Part shown: piece by piece, positions 1 through 63,484 of the stretch
Position numbering within the stretch: position 1 is the first letter of the stretch
Layout: each line of letters opens with the position of its first letter
IMG/VR virus record: IMGVR_UViG_3300050343_000268
Span: 1-64,000 of that record
Reading direction: 5' to 3' (one strand)
Source of the DNA: a virus
DNA length: 64,000 bases
The notes under the pieces: generated by a model
Databases searched by the model: none
What the model was told of the DNA's origin: nothing
What the model saw: only the letters and a program-made list of their open reading frames with translations
Translations under genes and position numbers: made by a program

Positions 1-455
1 GAAACACACAAGTAATTGACAAATGTTACAACGAAAGTAAGACTTAAGTTGATGAATGCAATAACTTCTGTGAACGCAAGATGGAAACGAAAGTTAATTC
101 GTACGTAAACTTTAGCGTGATACGAAATCGTATCGTAAAAGAATTAACTTGAGTTTACTTGCGTGAATCGTGAGTGATATCGTAAGTGAAACTTACGCTT
201 GAGCGAACAATAAACATACGTGAACGAGCGAAGCGAGTGAACAACTGTAGATAAACGGAAGCTTGCAATCGTAAGTGCAATCTGTAGTTGTTACTGCTGT
301 GTCTCTATTTTTTTTGTTTGACATAGCTCAAGGGTAGTGAGTATATTAGACGTGTCAAAAATTTCATATCACTTTTGACCCCCTATAGACCGTTTTTTGC
401 CTAATTTAAGGTCAACTAGCTCTAACTCATACTCACTACGGATAAGGGCTGTGTT
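1..455 (+). ncRNA. Highly structured non-coding element (ncRNA or folded ssDNA), possibly truncated by the window edge
   Basis: No ORF. Nested inverted repeats: 74-100/141-164, 119-134, 181-197, 240-252/280-292, 1-15/291-305 followed by a T-run, 321-329/446-454, 334-344/429-439, 355-361/373-379. G-U wobbles occur on the + strand. Confidence 0.55.
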
Positions 456-513
456 TTGATACCCTCAAATACCATCGATGGTGCTTATTTGGGCCAATTA
501 TTGGAGTCAAGCA

Positions 514-632
514 CTATCTACCACGCAAACCACGGTAAAACACGCTAATTCCTTTAAACCTATTCTGTTAATCCCTCTCCTGTCCCCTATTTATAAATGC
601 ACTTTATAGAGAGTAGAGTGGTAAGTGTGGTT
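514..632 (+). repeat. Dispersed ~115-bp inverted repeat, copy 1
   Basis: Colinear with the reverse complement of 45961-46073 (TACCACGCAAACCAC, TAAACCTATT, TTTATAGAGAGTAG shared). Confidence 0.85.
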
Positions 633-659
633 TTGTAGTAGTTAAAATAAATAAAAGCC

Positions 660-956
660 GTGCCTATTAATATGCGATATACAGCTGATGCGTTGAGACA
701 AAGAAGTAGAGCTAAGCGCAGTCGTCAAGAAATGATCGACCGTACTATGTGTAAGCCTGGCTATACATGGAACGAAACACTACAAAAATGCCTTGGATAT
801 GGCGGCGGTGGCCGAGATAAGCCTGATTTCAAAATTCCAGAGAATCCAGCGTCTCCAGAATTGCCTAATGCACCCACCCCACCATCAATGCCAGATACTC
901 CACAGCAAGCAATTGCAAAAGAAGTAAGTGCAAGAGCGTTAAAGAATAATACTTAG
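660..956 (+). CDS. Hypothetical protein with Cys pair and Pro-rich tail
   Basis: 98-aa ORF; TAAAAT box at 643-648. Confidence 0.6.
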   Translation: MPINMRYTADALRQRSRAKRSRQEMIDRTMCKPGYTWNETLQKCLGYGGGGRDKPDFKIPENPASPELPNAPTPPSMPDTPQQAIAKEVSARALKNNT

Positions 957-992
957 ATTTTGTAGAATAAAGAAAATAGAGCTGCAAATACC

Positions 993-2354
993 ATGGGATT
1001 CGGACCTTTCCTTAGCAAAGAAGAGAAGCAAAGGATTAATGACCAAGCATATTACGGTCTTGGTGGTGCTGGCAATATGATGTCGTCGCCTGGCGGTAAT
1101 ACAGGTTTTACGGCTCAACAGAAGAAGGATGCAATAGATGCTGCTGCGGCTGAAGCCTTAGGTTTGAAAACACCTCCATCTCAGGTGATGGGACCTGGTG
1201 GACCAGGTGGATTTGGTCACACAAAAGTAAATGATCGAAGAAGGTCTTCAATGTCACCTTTAGCTTTAAAAGCTGAAAAGGAGGCTGCTGCTGCACGGAA
1301 GCGCACGGATGAGCTTAAAGCTAGGCTGGCATTAATAGAAAAAAATAAGCTGAAAGATACATCAAGCGATCTACCTCCATCAGCCCCCGTATTGCCATCT
1401 CCTTTATCACGTGACGTGATTAGTAGTGATGGAGTAAGTAATGGAACCCAAACTAGCCCTGGAGGTACACCAATCCTCGATGCTGCTGGTGCGGCCAGCT
1501 TTCTAAACAATCTGCAAGTTGGTACTGGTCAGTTCTCATCTACTCAGCTGCCTATGACGCAAAGCAGTATGTGGGAAAAGGGGAGTGTGGATGCTCAAGC
1601 GTTTAGTGGTCTTGAGCCTAGTTACACTTCAAATACTCTTGGATCTTATACGGCAAGTCCTAAAGCATTTGCAAACTTAGATGCAACTGGGACAGGTGCC
1701 GAGTTCAATGCAAATGCCTCAGTCATCCCGGATGCTGCATTGCGTATGGGCCAAGCAACTGGAGCAATTCCGACTGCTAGTCCTATGTCTTCTGGACGTT
1801 TAGCAGATGCATTGAACGATCAGGCTGGTATGCAGTCATACATGAGTAAATTTGGTGATGCGGATGCAGATATGCAAAGACGTGCAAATGCAGCGTTTTT
1901 AAATACGGGGGGCTCTATGAAGGGTCTGCGAGCTAAGGAAGCTGAGTTAGCCATGTTCTATGCAGGTGGTCAACATCTCTCATTGAATGGTGACGGCTCT
2001 GAATTCTTGCGGAACAAGGATGGACAGAATATTGCTGCTGATCCTAATGATGTCAGAAACTATAAGTCTGGTCAAATGACTGCTGAACAATTCAGAGATA
2101 CATTTAAGGGTGCCGTCAATCAAACATTCACCTCAGCAAAAGACTCAGAAAGTTCACATTCCAAGAATCCAGTTGCGGCTTCATATCAATCACCTAATAC
2201 CAATTTCGGTCCAGTCATGGATACTGAAGAGATGGGTAAAAGATTGGATGCATCAATTGGCATGAATGGAACATTCGGTCCTGTGATTGATGGTGATGTA
2301 TATGCCTCCTTCCTTGACGGTAGACGTGAGCCATTAGCACGCTTACTTAAGTAA
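993..2354 (+). CDS. Low-complexity putative virion/internal protein
   Basis: 453-aa G/S/A-rich ORF; TAGAAT box at 963-968. Confidence 0.6.
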   Translation: MGFGPFLSKEEKQRINDQAYYGLGGAGNMMSSPGGNTGFTAQQKKDAIDAAAAEALGLKTPPSQVMGPGGPGGFGHTKVNDRRRSSMSPLALKAEKEAAAARKRTDELKARLALIEKNKLKDTSSDLPPSAPVLPSPLSRDVISSDGVSNGTQTSPGGTPILDAAGAASFLNNLQVGTGQFSSTQLPMTQSSMWEKGSVDAQAFSGLEPSYTSNTLGSYTASPKAFANLDATGTGAEFNANASVIPDAALRMGQATGAIPTASPMSSGRLADALNDQAGMQSYMSKFGDADADMQRRANAAFLNTGGSMKGLRAKEAELAMFYAGGQHLSLNGDGSEFLRNKDGQNIAADPNDVRNYKSGQMTAEQFRDTFKGAVNQTFTSAKDSESSHSKNPVAASYQSPNTNFGPVMDTEEMGKRLDASIGMNGTFGPVIDGDVYASFLDGRREPLARLLK

Positions 2355-2395
2355 TAAATAGCATCTAAGAGTTATATACAATAGTCATAGGTTTA

Positions 2396-4492
2396 TTGTT
2401 TAAGAATGTGGCTTTAGAAGATATTCAGCAGATGCATAATCGTGCCATCACTGCTATTGGCAATACATCTGCTAGTAATAACTTTCGTCAGCATAAGCAT
2501 GATCAAAATAACAAGTTGATTGCAAGTGCAAAAGCATTTGATGCTGGTAGAACTCTTGGAATGAGTGAGGAAGAGACTCTTGCTGCACTGTCAAGGCAAC
2601 TCAGACGTCAAAAACGGGCAGATGACAAGATCACAATGCAGGATGTAGAGCGAAAATTCGTTCAATCTGCTAAAACACTGTCGGATCCAGCCAATCCTGC
2701 TGAAATTCAGGGTGTATCGCTAAGAGAAGAGCCAGAAATTGACCCATTTGGCCAAGATCAAGGTCAATATTACGAATATAAGGAAGGTGATAGTCAATAT
2801 GTAGACCAACAGCGTAGAAATACACTCGATTCCATGGCTGATATGGAAGCTCGTGACGAAATGGGGCAACGAGTTTATGATCGCTACGGTGTTCAACTAA
2901 AAAATGGCGTTAATCCTGGTGATTACGACGAATTAGCTGCTGAATTGGAAACATTGCGTGGAACAAGTGCAAGTGCTGGTGATAGGTCCCCAGTTGCACC
3001 TCAATCTGCGCTCCGAGACGCAATTGGGACACTGAACGCTGCTCAAGCTGAGCAATCAGGCTTTATGTCAAAACTCAGTGGAGTATTTGGTGGCGGCGGT
3101 AGAGAAATTCCTGGTTTAGTCGGAGTAAGGGGCGAACTGGAAGATGCATTGCGAGATGGCAGTGTTCAACGTGATGCAGACGCTGCATTATCCAAAGAAA
3201 TGGTCCGAAGAGATAATGAGAGGTTCTCTGGTCGTCGGGCAGGCTACAGCAACGTAAAAGCCGCAATGGAAGCAGAAGATATCGGTGAAACAATGTATCG
3301 CCCTTCTTCTACTTATCCAGGTATGGAGCTGCCAGCAGTTCGTGCTGATCAAACAATAGCTGCTATCGCGGCTGCTAATCCACGTCAGTTTCCAGTAGCA
3401 GGTTTCAATGATGCAGGGATTGCATTAGACCCAGCTACCGGTAATCCTATTGGAATGCAAGGTCCTTCATACCAAGGACCTAATACTGATGCGGGTGCTG
3501 CTCTTAATGCACCTATGACTACTAGAGCATGGATGGTTGAAAAGCAGCCTGGTTACAAAGAAGGCGGGAGGGTGTTTGGTGACTTCCCTCAGGTAGATGT
3601 AACCGGTGCAACATCTATGTTTGCTGACCGTATGCGAGGACTAACTGTCCCAGGATCTGATCAGCAACCATTCAGTAACGTCTCTCCTAATATTCGCAGC
3701 GTAGATGAACTGCAACGTGCAGCTGACGCAATTGTTGCTCGTATGCCTGGACCCTTCTTTACAAAAGAAGCAAACCCAGACGGTGGTGCACTCCTTAATA
3801 CACGTCAGCAAGATCCAGACATTCGTGGCGTATTAGGTAAGTTGCGCTATACACCCGCTCAGGAAGCTGAACTAGCAAATGCAATGTATCAGCTTGAGGT
3901 TGCCAAAGCCACAGAGATTAATCAAAACGGCAAAGGCCAGTACTTCACACGAACAGGACCAATGGGAGAATTAGAACCAACAGGTTTTGGTGCTACTACA
4001 CAAGGTGGTGGAAAAGTATTCTTCAATTCACCTGAAGCAATTGACCCTCGTGCTGGTCAAGCCCAAGTAGCACGTGTCATTCCTGGTCAAACCATTCAAG
4101 GAAAAGATATTGTCACAGCATTCAAAGGTCTTGAAACATCAGGTGCTCAACAGCCCTTCATTGGACAAGTCGCTGGCCAAGCGCCACGAATGCAGCGTTA
4201 CAACAGTACGGCTCCAAAGGGGCAGCCTGTACAAACTACGCCTGAAGGTATTGAAGATTATCTGAGACAACAAGAACAGCAATTTGCATATAACAAGCAA
4301 GTAACTGAGGCTAAGAAAAATCCACGTACAATTGTTAGGCCTGTTGCACAGCAGAAAGTAGATGAACCTAAGCTTCGAGGTAAAGTAGTTAAAGCACAAC
4401 TTGCACAAGAACGTGCTAACCGTGACGCTAAAAAACGTCAGACCAAACAAACTGAAATCATGCAGTATATCCCCCGCCGCTTTAGAGGTTAA
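2396..4492 (+). CDS. Large hypothetical protein, putative internal virion protein
   Basis: 698-aa Q/G/A-rich ORF in the structural cluster. Confidence 0.6.
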   Translation: MFKNVALEDIQQMHNRAITAIGNTSASNNFRQHKHDQNNKLIASAKAFDAGRTLGMSEEETLAALSRQLRRQKRADDKITMQDVERKFVQSAKTLSDPANPAEIQGVSLREEPEIDPFGQDQGQYYEYKEGDSQYVDQQRRNTLDSMADMEARDEMGQRVYDRYGVQLKNGVNPGDYDELAAELETLRGTSASAGDRSPVAPQSALRDAIGTLNAAQAEQSGFMSKLSGVFGGGGREIPGLVGVRGELEDALRDGSVQRDADAALSKEMVRRDNERFSGRRAGYSNVKAAMEAEDIGETMYRPSSTYPGMELPAVRADQTIAAIAAANPRQFPVAGFNDAGIALDPATGNPIGMQGPSYQGPNTDAGAALNAPMTTRAWMVEKQPGYKEGGRVFGDFPQVDVTGATSMFADRMRGLTVPGSDQQPFSNVSPNIRSVDELQRAADAIVARMPGPFFTKEANPDGGALLNTRQQDPDIRGVLGKLRYTPAQEAELANAMYQLEVAKATEINQNGKGQYFTRTGPMGELEPTGFGATTQGGGKVFFNSPEAIDPRAGQAQVARVIPGQTIQGKDIVTAFKGLETSGAQQPFIGQVAGQAPRMQRYNSTAPKGQPVQTTPEGIEDYLRQQEQQFAYNKQVTEAKKNPRTIVRPVAQQKVDEPKLRGKVVKAQLAQERANRDAKKRQTKQTEIMQYIPRRFRG

Positions 4493-45960: not shown

Positions 45961-46073
45961 ACGCTAACCACACTACTCTCTATAAACTGCATAAATAAAT
46001 CCCTATAGGGAGGGGATTACGGAATAGGTTTATAGGATTAACCGTAGTTTAGTGTGGTTTGCGTGGTATATAG
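45961..46073 (-). repeat. Dispersed ~115-bp inverted repeat, copy 2
   Basis: Reverse complement aligns to 514-632. Confidence 0.85.
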
Positions 46074-55506: not shown

Positions 55507-57721
55507 TTAAAAGTCGTTGAGAATATGATCGTCAGTTAATGGATCGTCAGTAGGACGAATCCATAGTCGAACTGATTTAACCTTATTCGTAACAGGATCT
55601 TTGCGTGAAGTGTTTAATCGTCTCCAGCCAAGTGTTTGTAAAACATCAGCTACTCGACGAGCTTCGCGTCGTCCTTGCTGCCTGGGGTCAAGGTCAAGTG
55701 CTTTGGTAAGAACCTCAGCAGCTGAAACCTCTTCTTTCAGACTGACGTAATGACTAATCTTTTCCATCCAAGGATCTGGATCGCCAAACTCTTGGATGTA
55801 CTCAGCGATCTGAGCGATCTCACCGCTATTGAATTCATATGAATTGCCATCACGATAAGCTTGAACAGCTGATGCCCATAGGGAATCACGTTCTTCACTA
55901 ATCTGCTTCCAAGGAATTAAGAAGCCGCTGCCGATCTCAAGAGGTACAAAGCGGCGATTGCCTGTACTATCAACGAGAAACTGGTTACGATTAGTCGTGC
56001 CAATCATAACAAAGCGACGAAGTAGTCGCTCAGGAAGACTAGCATATGGTCTTCTTACTTCATCACAACGTGTTGTAATTAGGTTCTTGAAGTTCTCAAT
56101 GTTGCGTGATTGGAAGAAGTGGTCAATCTCAGGGAGCTCTAGCAACCAAGCAACGTGCAACCTGTATTGCTCTTTCATTAAGGTCTCTAATGGAGTAGAG
56201 ACTTCAGCAAAGAGCTTCTCAGGGACAAGACTACGGCTAAACATTGACTTACCTACACCTTGAGCACCAACTAAGATTGGGAGCCAGGACATAGAACAGC
56301 CAGGGTTATAAGCACGAGCTACTGCACCAATCATCATGCGCTGCATGGCAAGCGTTGACAGATGATTTTTGTTGCCTAAGAACACTTCACCAATACGATC
56401 CCAATCTTTATGTGGGATGGCGTGAGCGGAGCAAGAATCCAAGTAACGTCTAATAGGGCAGTACCTGTTCTTACCAGCTGCGTATTGAATGGCAGCTTTT
56501 ATACGCTGCTTCAGGAATAAAGACTCCGTGCTCGCAAGCAAGCTTGGTAGTCATTAAGTCAAGGTCATTACCCTCTAGCTCAATGGTTTTACCATTAGCG
56601 TCGTCATATTCAATTGCCCCTGTAAGTTCGTTCTTACGAAGGTTAGTCAAAATTTCTTTGACCTTTTTTACATCGTCTTCGCGCTCTTTAGCAGCATCAC
56701 TGCCTGAACGCTTGGGTCTACCTTTTGTTCTTTTAGCTTGAGAAGCATCAGGTATGGGCTCAAATTCAGGATCCAATTTCACCTCCAGGTTATTAATTAC
56801 ATCATCAAAGTTTGGTAGAGCATCAAATTCTATGTAGCCTACCGCCGATCCAACAGCACCAAAGCGTAACTCTGGCGGTAATTGTGATGACCAACTACTG
56901 CTTTGTCTTTTTGCTAGTGAGTATAACTTAGCAGGTCCACTATGATTACCGAGACCGCGCCATTTAAATGGTTGAATATTCTCACGTTTCTCGCCGTGAT
57001 GTCCACGCAATACCCAGTCAACCCAGTCATCAAACACAGGCTGACCAATAGCTGCACAGGCAGCCATAACAGGTACATAGCGAGTTTCATACTCGCCATC
57101 TTCTGATGGTACTAAGAAGTTTCTTAGTAACCACTGACAACGCTTGATGTCTGCATCAGTTACGTCTGAAGCAACAAAGTCTGTTGGATCATCGTAATCA
57201 ATGTCAGTTAGCAGAAACTCAGGGACTAATGCATCTGCATTGATAAGCCATTCAGCCTTGGTGTTGCCATACCAAAGCCGCTCAGGCTTCTGTCCGCAGT
57301 TATCTTTGATTGTCTCAATACCAAGGTCAGCAAATAGTCTGTTGACTACAAGCCAGTAAGCACCGCGATGCTGTGACGTGGTCTTAAGTTCTAGCTCAAG
57401 GGGAAACAAAGCACGGAACCTGTGCTCTGATTCGGTATGACTAGCAGTGGTATAAGTAGCAACACACCAGTTACGGGCAGTATCTGTATTCCAAAATGCA
57501 TCGAGGGTAGTGTCGCCATCGATATCTACAACAACTAAGTTGCTGCCTGATGCATTATCAACACGTCTGTGCCTGCCAACAAAATGAGTGGCGCACCAGC
57601 CATAGCCAGCTTCCACCCATCCTCGTAGCCATGTGAGACTTTCTTCAATGTTTAACCAGCCCTGAGCTGGTTGCTTTTCTTTGTTGCGGCAGTCTTTATG
57701 AACTGCAATCCGCAGCTTCAT
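55507..57721 (-). CDS. Primase fused to VapE-type helicase, with an indel near 56505
   Basis: VVVDIDG and HRFRALF primase motifs, PriCT-like segment; Walker A GAQGVGKS, ELPE, GTTN, DSTGNRRF. Confidence 0.88.
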
Positions 57722-58472
57722 TATTGTCATCCTCTGGATATAGTTCGTGGAACATTTTTGCTCTTTTTAAAAAGCGTGATTCATAGAGTTCAAGCTGGTC
57801 TCCATCAATGAAGATCGCTTGAGTTGTCTCTTCAGTGGCTACCAAAATCAGTGCCACGTCACATAGAAACCCGACACGCTCGTTCAATGCGTATCGATAT
57901 GCAGCCATCTGCTGCGCACACTTTTGAAACTTTCTCCATCCGCCATACCCGACACGATCACCTCTGTCTGGTGAAAAGGCGGAGTATGGGCCATTGCTGG
58001 TTTTGAAGTCAGCAATTACTTTTACACCACCAATCTCTCCAATGAGATCAGGGCATCCAGCAAATAAATGTTCAGTACTCCAGACATATGCGACTTCTTT
58101 GTCATCACTACGTAAGTTATTCCAGTCAGGGCGAAGTGGTCGCTCAGACCAATGAATTGTATCAAACCAATCTAGGTATTGGGATAACCCATTCCAAAAT
58201 GGTTGATATTCTTCAGGTACTCCTGGATCTAACCCACGTAGATAATTTTCACACCCAAGGTGAATAGCAGTGCCACGTGTCGCAGCAGCTTCTAGCGCAC
58301 CTGGGTTTTTGTCCTGCCACTGCCGCAAGCCTGCTTTCGACTTTTCACTTTCAGTACCTGAAAGGACGGTCGTGACTGACGGCATGTAGAGACCCGAACA
58401 TAGATATTTGCGGTGTCCTGCCGACGTCTGTATACGATAAGGCTTATCATGAGTGGTTGAGTTTGTCATCAA
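57696..58472 (-). CDS. PD-(D/E)xK exonuclease
   Basis: PSVTTVL, RGTAIH, AGCPDLI, ADFKTS, QMAAY. Confidence 0.85.
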   Translation of the reverse strand: MMTNSTTHDKPYRIQTSAGHRKYLCSGLYMPSVTTVLSGTESEKSKAGLRQWQDKNPGALEAAATRGTAIHLGCENYLRGLDPGVPEEYQPFWNGLSQYLDWFDTIHWSERPLRPDWNNLRSDDKEVAYVWSTEHLFAGCPDLIGEIGGVKVIADFKTSNGPYSAFSPDRGDRVGYGGWRKFQKCAQQMAAYRYALNERVGFLCDVALILVATEETTQAIFIDGDQLELYESRFLKRAKMFHELYPEDDNNEAADCSS

Positions 58473-62740: not shown

Positions 62741-63484
62741 TTATGCGTATTGAGGTAGGTTTTGGTTGGCAGTCTCAAAAAACGCCGGCATTCTGCTAGC
62801 TCTAGTGTCTGCTAGTCCAACAGCTTTCCCTGATGTGTAGAGGCTATCCGAACATCCCATCCAGAAGTTTGACGAGAGATGTTTGTGATCAGCTTCCCCT
62901 TTGAGGGATTGAAGAGTCCAAGCAATCGTAGCTCTTCTAAGCTTATCGAGCTCTTTGTCAGTCTTAAGACCGAGCTCTTGGCAGACGATTGTGTTCGCCG
63001 CGACGTGTGTTGTTTCGTCCCGGCTAATATCTGCAGAAGTGGTGCGTAATCCTGTATCTCCGAGGAATCGGAATATGGGCAGGAGCACGAAGAACACAGA
63101 CCGTTCGAGGACGACTGCTTTGAGAACAGGGTGCCTGTCAAGTTCGAGCCACGCCTTAGTAATGCGAGCAGCTTCCTTCTCAAATTGAGCGGGGATCTTA
63201 TGTGCTTCAGCCGCGAAATTAAGGGCAATGTCATGCTTTTCCTCATCTTTTACGTTAGATAACAGCAGCTCTCTACAGCCTTCAGCTTCAGTGCCTTGTG
63301 GCAGCTCGCCTTTCATAGCCTGTGAAATAAAATCTCCAACTGGGATTTCTAGGCTCCGCAAAGACAGTGCTCGTTGCACTGCTTCTTCACCACCAGCTAA
63401 TAGCTGACCAGCAGATACTTGAACTGGGGTCCATGTACGCTTGCGCTGATGAAGGTGGATGTATTTAGTAGCTGCTTTGGTCAT
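62741..63484 (-). CDS. nrdB: Ribonucleotide reductase class I beta subunit (short cyanophage type)
   Basis: Ferritin-like DEEKHD and SRDETTH motifs; lies directly downstream of the alpha subunit. Confidence 0.8.
   Translation of the reverse strand: MTKAATKYIHLHQRKRTWTPVQVSAGQLLAGGEEAVQRALSLRSLEIPVGDFISQAMKGELPQGTEAEGCRELLLSNVKDEEKHDIALNFAAEAHKIPAQFEKEAARITKAWLELDRHPVLKAVVLERSVFFVLLPIFRFLGDTGLRTTSADISRDETTHVAANTIVCQELGLKTDKELDKLRRATIAWTLQSLKGEADHKHLSSNFWMGCSDSLYTSGKAVGLADTRASRMPAFFETANQNLPQYA

Follow-up and report, generated by a model that had tools for sequence, protein, structure and literature searches.

Our comparative sequence analysis indicates that the first 318 nucleotides of the window (64,000 nt of DNA, positions 1 to 64,000 of the phage record IMGVR_UViG_3300050343_000268) are one copy of a structured element that is common to about 17 related uncultured phage contigs. 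Positions ~1-310 are a conserved chain of five independent hairpins that form on a single strand and contain G·A pairs of DNA type and GAA loops. Comparison of the relatives establishes that the structured element is under selection on one strand; it also shows that the hairpins are kept by compensatory mutation, are specific to the + strand, occur once per genome and lie beside an apparent genome end and the minimum of GC skew. The explanation which we tentatively place first is that window 1-318 serves as a single-strand DNA origin or priming signal at the end or junction of the phage genome. That the hairpins act as DNA instead of RNA, and that replication priming is the process, we infer.

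The phage record and its relatives

The record (G000) is 77,056 bp long with a CheckV completeness of 97%. Its gene set includes psbA, ribonucleotide reductase, a family-A DNA polymerase (Pol A) and a VapE/D5-type SF3 helicase, the last at 55507-56541 on the minus strand. A primase-like protein (56471-57730, minus strand) is also encoded, as are a nuclease of the PD-(D/E)XK type and an integrase-like protein. The presence of psbA together with class Ia ribonucleotide reductase confirms a cyanophage with auxiliary metabolic genes, and the large terminase (TerL), 54% identical to that of Synechococcus phage S-EIV1, places the record among the cyanophages of the broad S-EIV1 lineage. The + strand genes between 0.66 and 46 kb include the terminase, virion and tail-fibre proteins, and the minus-strand arm carries replication and auxiliary genes. 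An open frame is cut by the right end of the contig. In the relative G001 about 5.3 kb lie between the equivalents of the right and left ends of G000, and therefore the record is incomplete on the right.

A palindromic element of ~110 bp occurs in three copies (window 514-632; window 45961-46073 on the minus strand; record 73449-73500). The arms read CCAC-N5-CCAC / GTGG-N5-GTGG here and CTAC-N5-CTAC / GTAG-N5-GTAG in distant relatives; with this coordinated change, the palindromes have the look of operators for a phage regulator, placed about a promoter-like core rich in A and T.

Homologues of the hairpin element were collected by exact-word scans with conserved stretches, which gave L004 (85% identical), L063 (96%), L064 (70%) and five metagenome contigs of greater divergence. 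Ten more viral contigs of the same lineage, whose kinship is confirmed by shared proteins, came from a scan with another conserved word, which lies 3' of the element and is independent of the hairpin motifs. A blastn search of positions 1-700 against 50,697 phage records returned no match, and protein-anchored searches with the two downstream ORFs gave no relative for the first and one for the second. A covariance model (R1) of the central hairpin, built from six sequences, found one match per genome. S-EIV1 itself is without the hairpin element: it has neither a match to R1 nor the T8-box pattern. In a cmscan of positions 1-3000 against Rfam 15 at E<=1 no family was found, the one chance match (osmY, 1077-1140) scoring 17.6 against a gathering score of 46.9 bits. 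The preliminary description of this DNA had spoken of an undescribed structured element, and such it appears to be: conserved, and without an Rfam 15 match at this threshold.

The hairpin chain and its compensatory changes

Two closed multi-stem domains had been drawn in the preliminary description, the first of them sealed by a stem of 1-15 with 291-305. This stem has only 12 of its 15 pairs, and it conflicts with H0, since 7-70 forms its own hairpin in every relative; its 3' arm is changed without compensation in L004, and on these changes we rejected it. The first domain is instead a chain of five independent hairpins (Table 1). The single motifs listed for that domain, namely the long stem, the hairpins, the motif at 220-242, the stem 240-252/280-292 with its two G-T pairs and the T-run, are each present as described.

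Table 1. Predicted features of the element and its surroundings, with two auxiliary gene regions (window coordinates unless marked as record)
Feature	Position	Strand	Remarks
Junction, possible physical left genome end	1..6	+	CTTAAG(A/T)A|ACAC in read-through relatives
Hairpin H0	7..70	+	60-65 nt hairpin predicted here in all 13 homologues, stem sequences differing
Central long hairpin	70..168	+	GTGA...GAA(T/C) frame; compensated changes
Helices of the central hairpin	HA 74-80/158-164; HB 85-88/153-156; tandem GA 89-90/151-152; HC 91-100/141-150	+	
7-bp stem with GAA triloop	181..197	+	NNNNNGT-GNA-ACNNNNN; stem varies, tip kept
A-rich linker	203..219	+	GAACAAAAGATAAAAG-like in relatives; conserved in all homologues
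G·A-zipper hairpin ('slot')	220..242	+	23-mer GT-GA-AC-GA-GC-GAA-GC-GA-GT-GA-AC; frame kept, inside varies
3' hairpin HF	240..292	+	13 bp with G-T and T-G pairs, inner TTGCA/TGCAA hairpin; from inverted-repeat search
T8-GTT tract	308..318 (T8 = 308-315)	+	identical in all 19 family sequences
Sigma70-like promoter	318..347	+	TTGACA-18-TATATT; 11/12 consensus positions; faces structural genes
Best-conserved primary-sequence block of the gap (~65 nt)	332..398	+	alignment A7
Inverted copy of part of the box (ATACTCACTAC)	429..439	-	from inverted-repeat search; partner in the proposed domain-2 stem
Class Ia ribonucleotide reductase genes	62741-63484	-	auxiliary metabolic genes
psbA (D1 reaction-centre protein)	record 69614-70702	-	auxiliary metabolic gene

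Covariation among homologues, proposed earlier as a check, was found for the central hairpin, the GAA hairpin at 181-197 and the motif at 220-242. The strongest case is the long stem of the central hairpin (74-100/141-164), previously given as ACGCAAG..AAAC-GA-AAGTTAATTC / GAATTAACTT-GA-GTTT..CTTGCGT with a tandem GA/GA mismatch; it is present and supported by compensatory changes. Helix HA (ACGCAAG/CTTGCGT) exists in six haplotypes with all changes perfectly compensated, for example ACACAAG/CTTGTGT, ACACGAG/CTCGTGT, ACGCGAG/CTCGCGT and GCGTGAG/CTCACGT, and the HA-HB-HC architecture is the predicted fold in 13 of 13 sequences. In the covariance-model alignment A6 (15 rows) 95.8% of the cells of the long stem are paired, compared with 78.6% in shuffles, none of 500 shuffles reaching as high; 16 of the 21 pairs are changed on both sides, and slid controls give 13-42% pairing. 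Alignment A6 is fitted to its own model; plain MAFFT with RNAalifold already recovers the outer helix. The apex is variable and includes the GATACG/CGTATC hairpin (119-134) which had been pointed out before. In H0 it is the apex that is conserved, with the motif AACG-NN-AGT(A/T)AGAC at ~30-44.

The hairpin CGTAAGT-GAA-ACTTACG is likewise present, and its stem covaries beneath a conserved tip: the relatives carry CATTTGT/ACAAATG (L064), CTCGTGT/ACACGAG (L148) and ACGAGTGT/ACACTCGT (L147), and the loop is GTA in L063 and L004, so that the GT-GNA-AC tip stands over four unrelated stems. In the 23-mer that follows the linker, Watson-Crick steps alternate with tandem G·A pairs around a GAA loop, and the motif AC-GA-GC-GAA-GC-GA-GT noted earlier is found inside it with the support of covariation. 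That the first nine homologues all carry this 23-mer unchanged is an artefact of ascertainment, since the search used it; in relatives found independently of it the GTGA..GAAC frame is kept and the inner hairpin is replaced, by GAGTGAAACGA in L144 (a double change of C-G to T-A), by ACGTTTAC-GTAA-GTAAAACGT in L148 and by GCTTGC-AAC-GCAAGC in L149. A hairpin occupies the place of HF in all relatives: the CTGTAG/CTGTAG wobble stem is found also in L063 and L064, and L004 has a different hairpin with one double change of A-T to T-G. The linker is complementary to the T8-GTT tract, and this pairing appears in the minimum-free-energy (MFE) structures of several relatives; it cannot show covariation, because T8GTT is invariant.

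In the distant relative L152 (5016-5345) three to four direct repeats of ~25-30 nt (..ATCACTTCAG(T/G)TAAC..) stand in place of the element's 3' half, an arrangement that appears iteron-like. The alpha protein of phage P4 binds TGTTCACC iterons, whose reverse complement GGTGAACA resembles GTGAACA here, a likeness to which we attach no value as evidence.

Comparison of folding energies with dinucleotide shuffles, which had also been proposed, bore out the expectation in part. Positions 1-320 fold better than shuffles both as RNA (z -3.2 on the + strand, -3.1 on the - strand) and as DNA (z -4.8 and -5.2 on the two strands). The two strands score equally and the 3' half (166-315) is unremarkable, with z of -0.4 to -2 on either strand in 11 homologues; the energy excess stems from the central hairpin. 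As a test of strand the energies are uninformative, and their equality on both strands counts against our leading reading.

The functional strand

The evidence points to the + strand as the functional one, given its tandem G·A pairs, its GNA loops and the presence of G·T pairs with hardly any A·C; the earlier statements that the wobble pairs lie on this strand and that the hairpins obey the rules of DNA mini-hairpins both hold. The first pair of HA is A-T or G-T and never A·C in alignment A6, and G·T pairs outnumber A·C pairs by 9 to 3 in the covariance-model alignment. For the central hairpin, the MFE folds contain 19 G·U pairs on the + strand and 7 on the - strand, and GTGAA occurs five times in 310 nt on the + strand and not once on the - strand. 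Read on the minus strand, the G·A/G·A tandems and GNA loops would turn into pyrimidine mismatches.

This asymmetry bears on the weakest of the rival explanations, by which a virion or phage RNA polymerase would use the hairpins as promoters, in the manner of N4, or the region would be the minus-strand 5' leader of the leftward early genes. The N4 early promoters, with a 5-7 bp stem, a GGA or GAA loop and a virion RNA polymerase, share their geometry and their position near the left genome end with the element: the hairpin at 181-197 (7-bp stem, 3-nt purine loop) and CTTGC-GGA-GCAAG in L150 match their shape (PMC13037366). Unlike in N4, however, no N4- or T7-type RNA polymerase was detected, and the + strand hairpins stand on the strand that would template RNA towards, and off, the left genome end. 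The T7-like RNA polymerase domain PF00940 had no match in the 77 kb, a search in which the control genomes gave none either, and there is no giant virion polymerase gene, the largest ORF of the 77-kb record (1451 aa) being tail-fibre-like. We rejected the N4-like model on the lack of a polymerase, with the silence of the PF00940 controls in mind. For the minus-strand leader speak the leftward small-gene cassettes that lie 5' of the junction in relatives and start ~100-140 nt beyond it. Against it, the conserved G·A pairs would become C·U or U·C mismatches on that strand and the G·U pairs would become A·C. Thus we hold either form of this explanation to be very improbable.

The leftward cassettes (L063 1-1061, L004 1-985, L150, L151) are repeated units, each with a terminator hairpin that has a GTTA or GATA loop and a T-run; after the terminator each has GTGTTCTT, then TATAnATT, and an ATG ~10 nt further on. 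This layout suggests that the leftward small genes may be near-leaderless early genes.

The genome end

G000 begins at GAAACAC. The relative G002 (87,159 bp, CheckV 100%) has no end repeats; one of its ends lies at the homologous ACAC and the other at ..CTTGCTTAAGA (..CTTAAGA), so that the two ends abut, and the end sequences are adjacent, as CTTAAG(A/T)A-ACAC, in relatives which read through the junction. That two independent assemblies end within ~4 nt of each other, and that the ends of one of them abut, is suggestive of a fixed physical terminus at the CTTAAG palindrome, which we take as a lead. A scan with the junction word for more contig ends at this place found none. An attP site is an unlikely cause of the contig ends; the integrase-like gene lies at 45.1-45.9 kb.

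One would argue that the whole arrangement is a packaging or end-processing signal associated with the terminus. The CTTAAG junction would then be the cleavage site of the terminase (cos-like), and the hairpin array with its repeated GTGAAC / ACTTAAGT words would be a terminase-binding, end-protecting or fold-back region. The near-coincident contig ends, with both ends of G002 abutting at the junction, agree with such a signal, as do the start of H0 ~5 nt from the contig end, the near-palindrome GTGGACTTAAGTTCAC just 5' of the junction in L063 and the recurrence of ACTTAAGT at 42-51. However, the cos and pac sites described so far are recognised in duplex form, without compensatory evolution of stems, and TerL is 12.7 kb distant from the hairpin element. 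Most relatives assemble across the junction (10 of 12 related large contigs, L063, L004 and L151 among the read-through sequences), which leaves the terminus a candidate only and weighs against our leading reading as well. Neither an overhang nor a terminal repeat is seen at the junction in the contigs, and IMG/VR assigns direct terminal repeats to another relative, G004, whose copy of the element lies in the middle of the contig. We therefore consider a packaging signal quite unlikely, with the reservation that it may overlap with an origin.

Cumulative GC skew has its minimum at position 1 and rises to ~47 kb, with no fall in the minus-strand arm. This course fits one-directional replication from the left end; transcription also shapes the skew, and since the GC skew of phages is largely set by the direction of transcription, the point can be turned against an origin.

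The downstream region

The second proposed domain (321-454) did not survive as a conserved fold. Its sequence in the window folds with a z of -4.1, but across 10 relatives 66.5% of the cells are paired compared with 61.7% in shuffles, the outer helix being paired in 49% of the cells and the 11-bp stem 334-344/429-439 in 67%. L004 has two uncompensated changes in 429-439. On the uncompensated changes and the near-shuffle pairing we rejected the nested fold. The two hexamers (-35 and -10) of the promoter in Table 1 coincide in part with the 5' arms of these stems.

It is the sequence of the 321-454 region that is conserved, as a promoter-like box, a short leader and a terminator-like hairpin. 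The equivalent of the promoter in L004 keeps 9 of 12 consensus positions; the close group has TTGnnn-18-TATATT, and the distant group has GGTATT/TATTAA at the place of the -10, without a canonical -35. Alignment A7 of the block at 332-398 contains 36 invariant columns across 10 divergent relatives, running from the box GGGTA..GAG..TATTARAC through GTC..AAATTTYRTA.CA.TTTT and CCYCCTATAG to a T-run, and in most relatives the block ends with a CCC-TATA-GGG hairpin followed by T5-6. The block takes in the -10 of the promoter and a conserved initial region, and it resembles a late promoter with a short terminated leader. The name of leader, which the preliminary description had given to the whole of 1-455, does not fit, as no promoter was found 5' of the element and the start of the contig is apparently a physical or assembly terminus.

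Origin or RNA

The preliminary description had left the choice between a non-coding RNA and a folded single-stranded DNA signal for origin, priming or packaging. An RNA and a folded DNA signal are still the two leading readings.

Structured phage RNAs are familiar from the heads of late operons and from genome ends, examples being the put RNA of HK022, the pR'-tR' 6S leader of lambda and the pRNA of phi29. As in these cases, the element is a multi-hairpin array just 5' of structural genes, followed by a T-run and adjoined by promoter, leader and terminator. It differs from them in having no Rfam match, no identified promoter and DNA-type loops; compared with the put RNA it is also much larger, and its transcription is putative. 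An RNA is nonetheless a possible and nearly as good explanation: a new structured non-coding RNA of ~250-310 nt would be made rightward from the + strand and end at the invariant U8. It could be a cis-acting antitermination or regulatory RNA ahead of the promoter-leader-terminator of the structural genes, or a stable trans-acting phage RNA. Compensatory changes and G·U pairs on the + strand are what such an RNA would leave behind, and covariation and G·T pairs are equally compatible with RNA, which is an argument against our first choice. The same holds for the layout of the 3' side, where a hairpin, a few bases and an invariant U-rich tract have the look of an RNA 3' end: in every relative the 3' arm of a hairpin ends ~2-8 nt before the tract, and L004 has a terminator-like site called at the homologous place. 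Further, a promoter, short leader and terminator directly 3' would need control of read-through, and the region lies outside Rfam, so an RNA here would be novel.

Several observations speak against this RNA. The read-through relatives have no conserved rightward -35/-10 5' of the element, and the window begins at the element itself, so that a terminus at this place would leave a promoter no room unless the genome circularises. A terminator scan of window 1-1100 gave no canonical intrinsic terminator, the nearest stem ending 8 nt before T8. The GNA triloops are conserved, RNA energy rules do not fold the 23-mer at 220-242, and the 3' half reaches z-scores of only -0.4 to -2. Finally, T8GTT is invariant and sits at a fixed distance from the promoter box (36 nt), as a DNA site would.

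We rank the single-strand origin or priming signal first because the hairpin tips obey the rules of DNA mini-hairpins (PMC13037366), because the 23-mer is not folded by RNA energy rules, because there is neither a promoter upstream nor a canonical terminator in the window, because the invariant, fixed-distance T8-GTT is DNA-site-like, and because the element is a single copy at the skew minimum and the apparent genome end. A last reason is that the phage encodes a primase and an SF3 helicase of its own. Proteins of this class have been proposed to recognise their origin by themselves, and for one of them, the prim-pol/SF3 replication protein of pRN1, sequence-specific priming on a GTG motif of the template has been shown (PMC2777425).

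We propose the following mechanism. Once the duplex is opened, the purine-rich + strand would fold into the chain of five hairpins, and tandem sheared G·A pairs and GNA triloops would stabilise these as DNA mini-hairpins resistant to nucleases and SSB. The hairpins would then act as a single-strand initiation signal or origin, which the primase and SF3 helicase of the phage would recognise and at which priming would take place, and the invariant T8 tract alongside would ease melting. The element, in its single copy, would lie at the left genome end or at the junction of early and late genes.

The nearest known counterparts are the complementary-strand origins of G4, St-1 and alpha3 and ssiA of RSF1010, where GNA/GNNA mini-hairpins occur (PMC13037366); here such mini-hairpins lie on the + strand as GC-GAA-GC (228-234), T-GAA-A (187-191) and, in L148, C-GTAA-G. 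These origins and the ssiA/ssiB signals of RSF1010, used by the RepB' primase, have strand-specific GNA/GNNA-loop hairpins like those described here (PMC13037366), and they share with the element the C-G or T-A pairs closing the loops, the sheared G·A pairs, a non-coding position, a single copy and a genome that encodes its own primase. In contrast to them, the element has five hairpins over 310 nt, the GTGA..GAAC frame and the invariant T8, and belongs to a tailed phage with 77 kb of dsDNA; the sequences are not similar.

The hairpin cap outside the lineage

The exact 21-mer GAACGAGCGAAGCGAGTGAAC (window 222-242) was found at 87 metagenome and 44 genome loci (131 in all, L013-L143), where chance would give about one or fewer. 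They include repeat units of Omnitrophota, haloarchaea, actinobacteria, Ruminococcus, Treponema, a single-cell genome of Synechococcus and an unrelated phage. A sequencing adaptor or artefact was rejected as the explanation, as the 21-mer stands in finished chromosomes and in a conserved phage context. In 55 of 108 distinct contexts the immediate flanks have at least 5 complementary bases, compared with 2.75 contexts expected, and therefore the 21-mer typically caps a longer hairpin, a variable inverted repeat. Two of the haloarchaeal copies stand immediately 3' of a tRNA gene, and the complement of the acceptor 3' strand comes next. In the unrelated viral contig L012 (8800-9700, minus strand) a gap of ~900 nt without genes contains two variant GAAC-hairpin-AGTGAAC copies, one with a GCTAGC-GAA-GCTAGC stem, each preceded by TTTATTTTGGGGT.

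A wider explanation, which we regard as unlikely, would combine these observations: replication in a widespread lineage of cyanophages would start from the element, as folded DNA at the physical left end of the genome, and its 23-nt G·A-zipper tip would belong to a hitherto unrecognised hairpin cap found across the domains of life. Such a cap may nucleate or mark hairpins of single-stranded DNA (or of RNA 3' ends) and may spread through insertion or through fold-back copying.

For almost all uncultured phages the origins, priming sites and termini are uncharted. The hairpin array at the assembly ends is a concrete candidate for the site where the genome is opened and copied, or else for a new large phage RNA, in a psbA-carrying lineage related to cyanophage S-EIV1. 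The exact 21-nt hairpin cap, common to phages, bacteria and archaea, calls for an explanation of its own.
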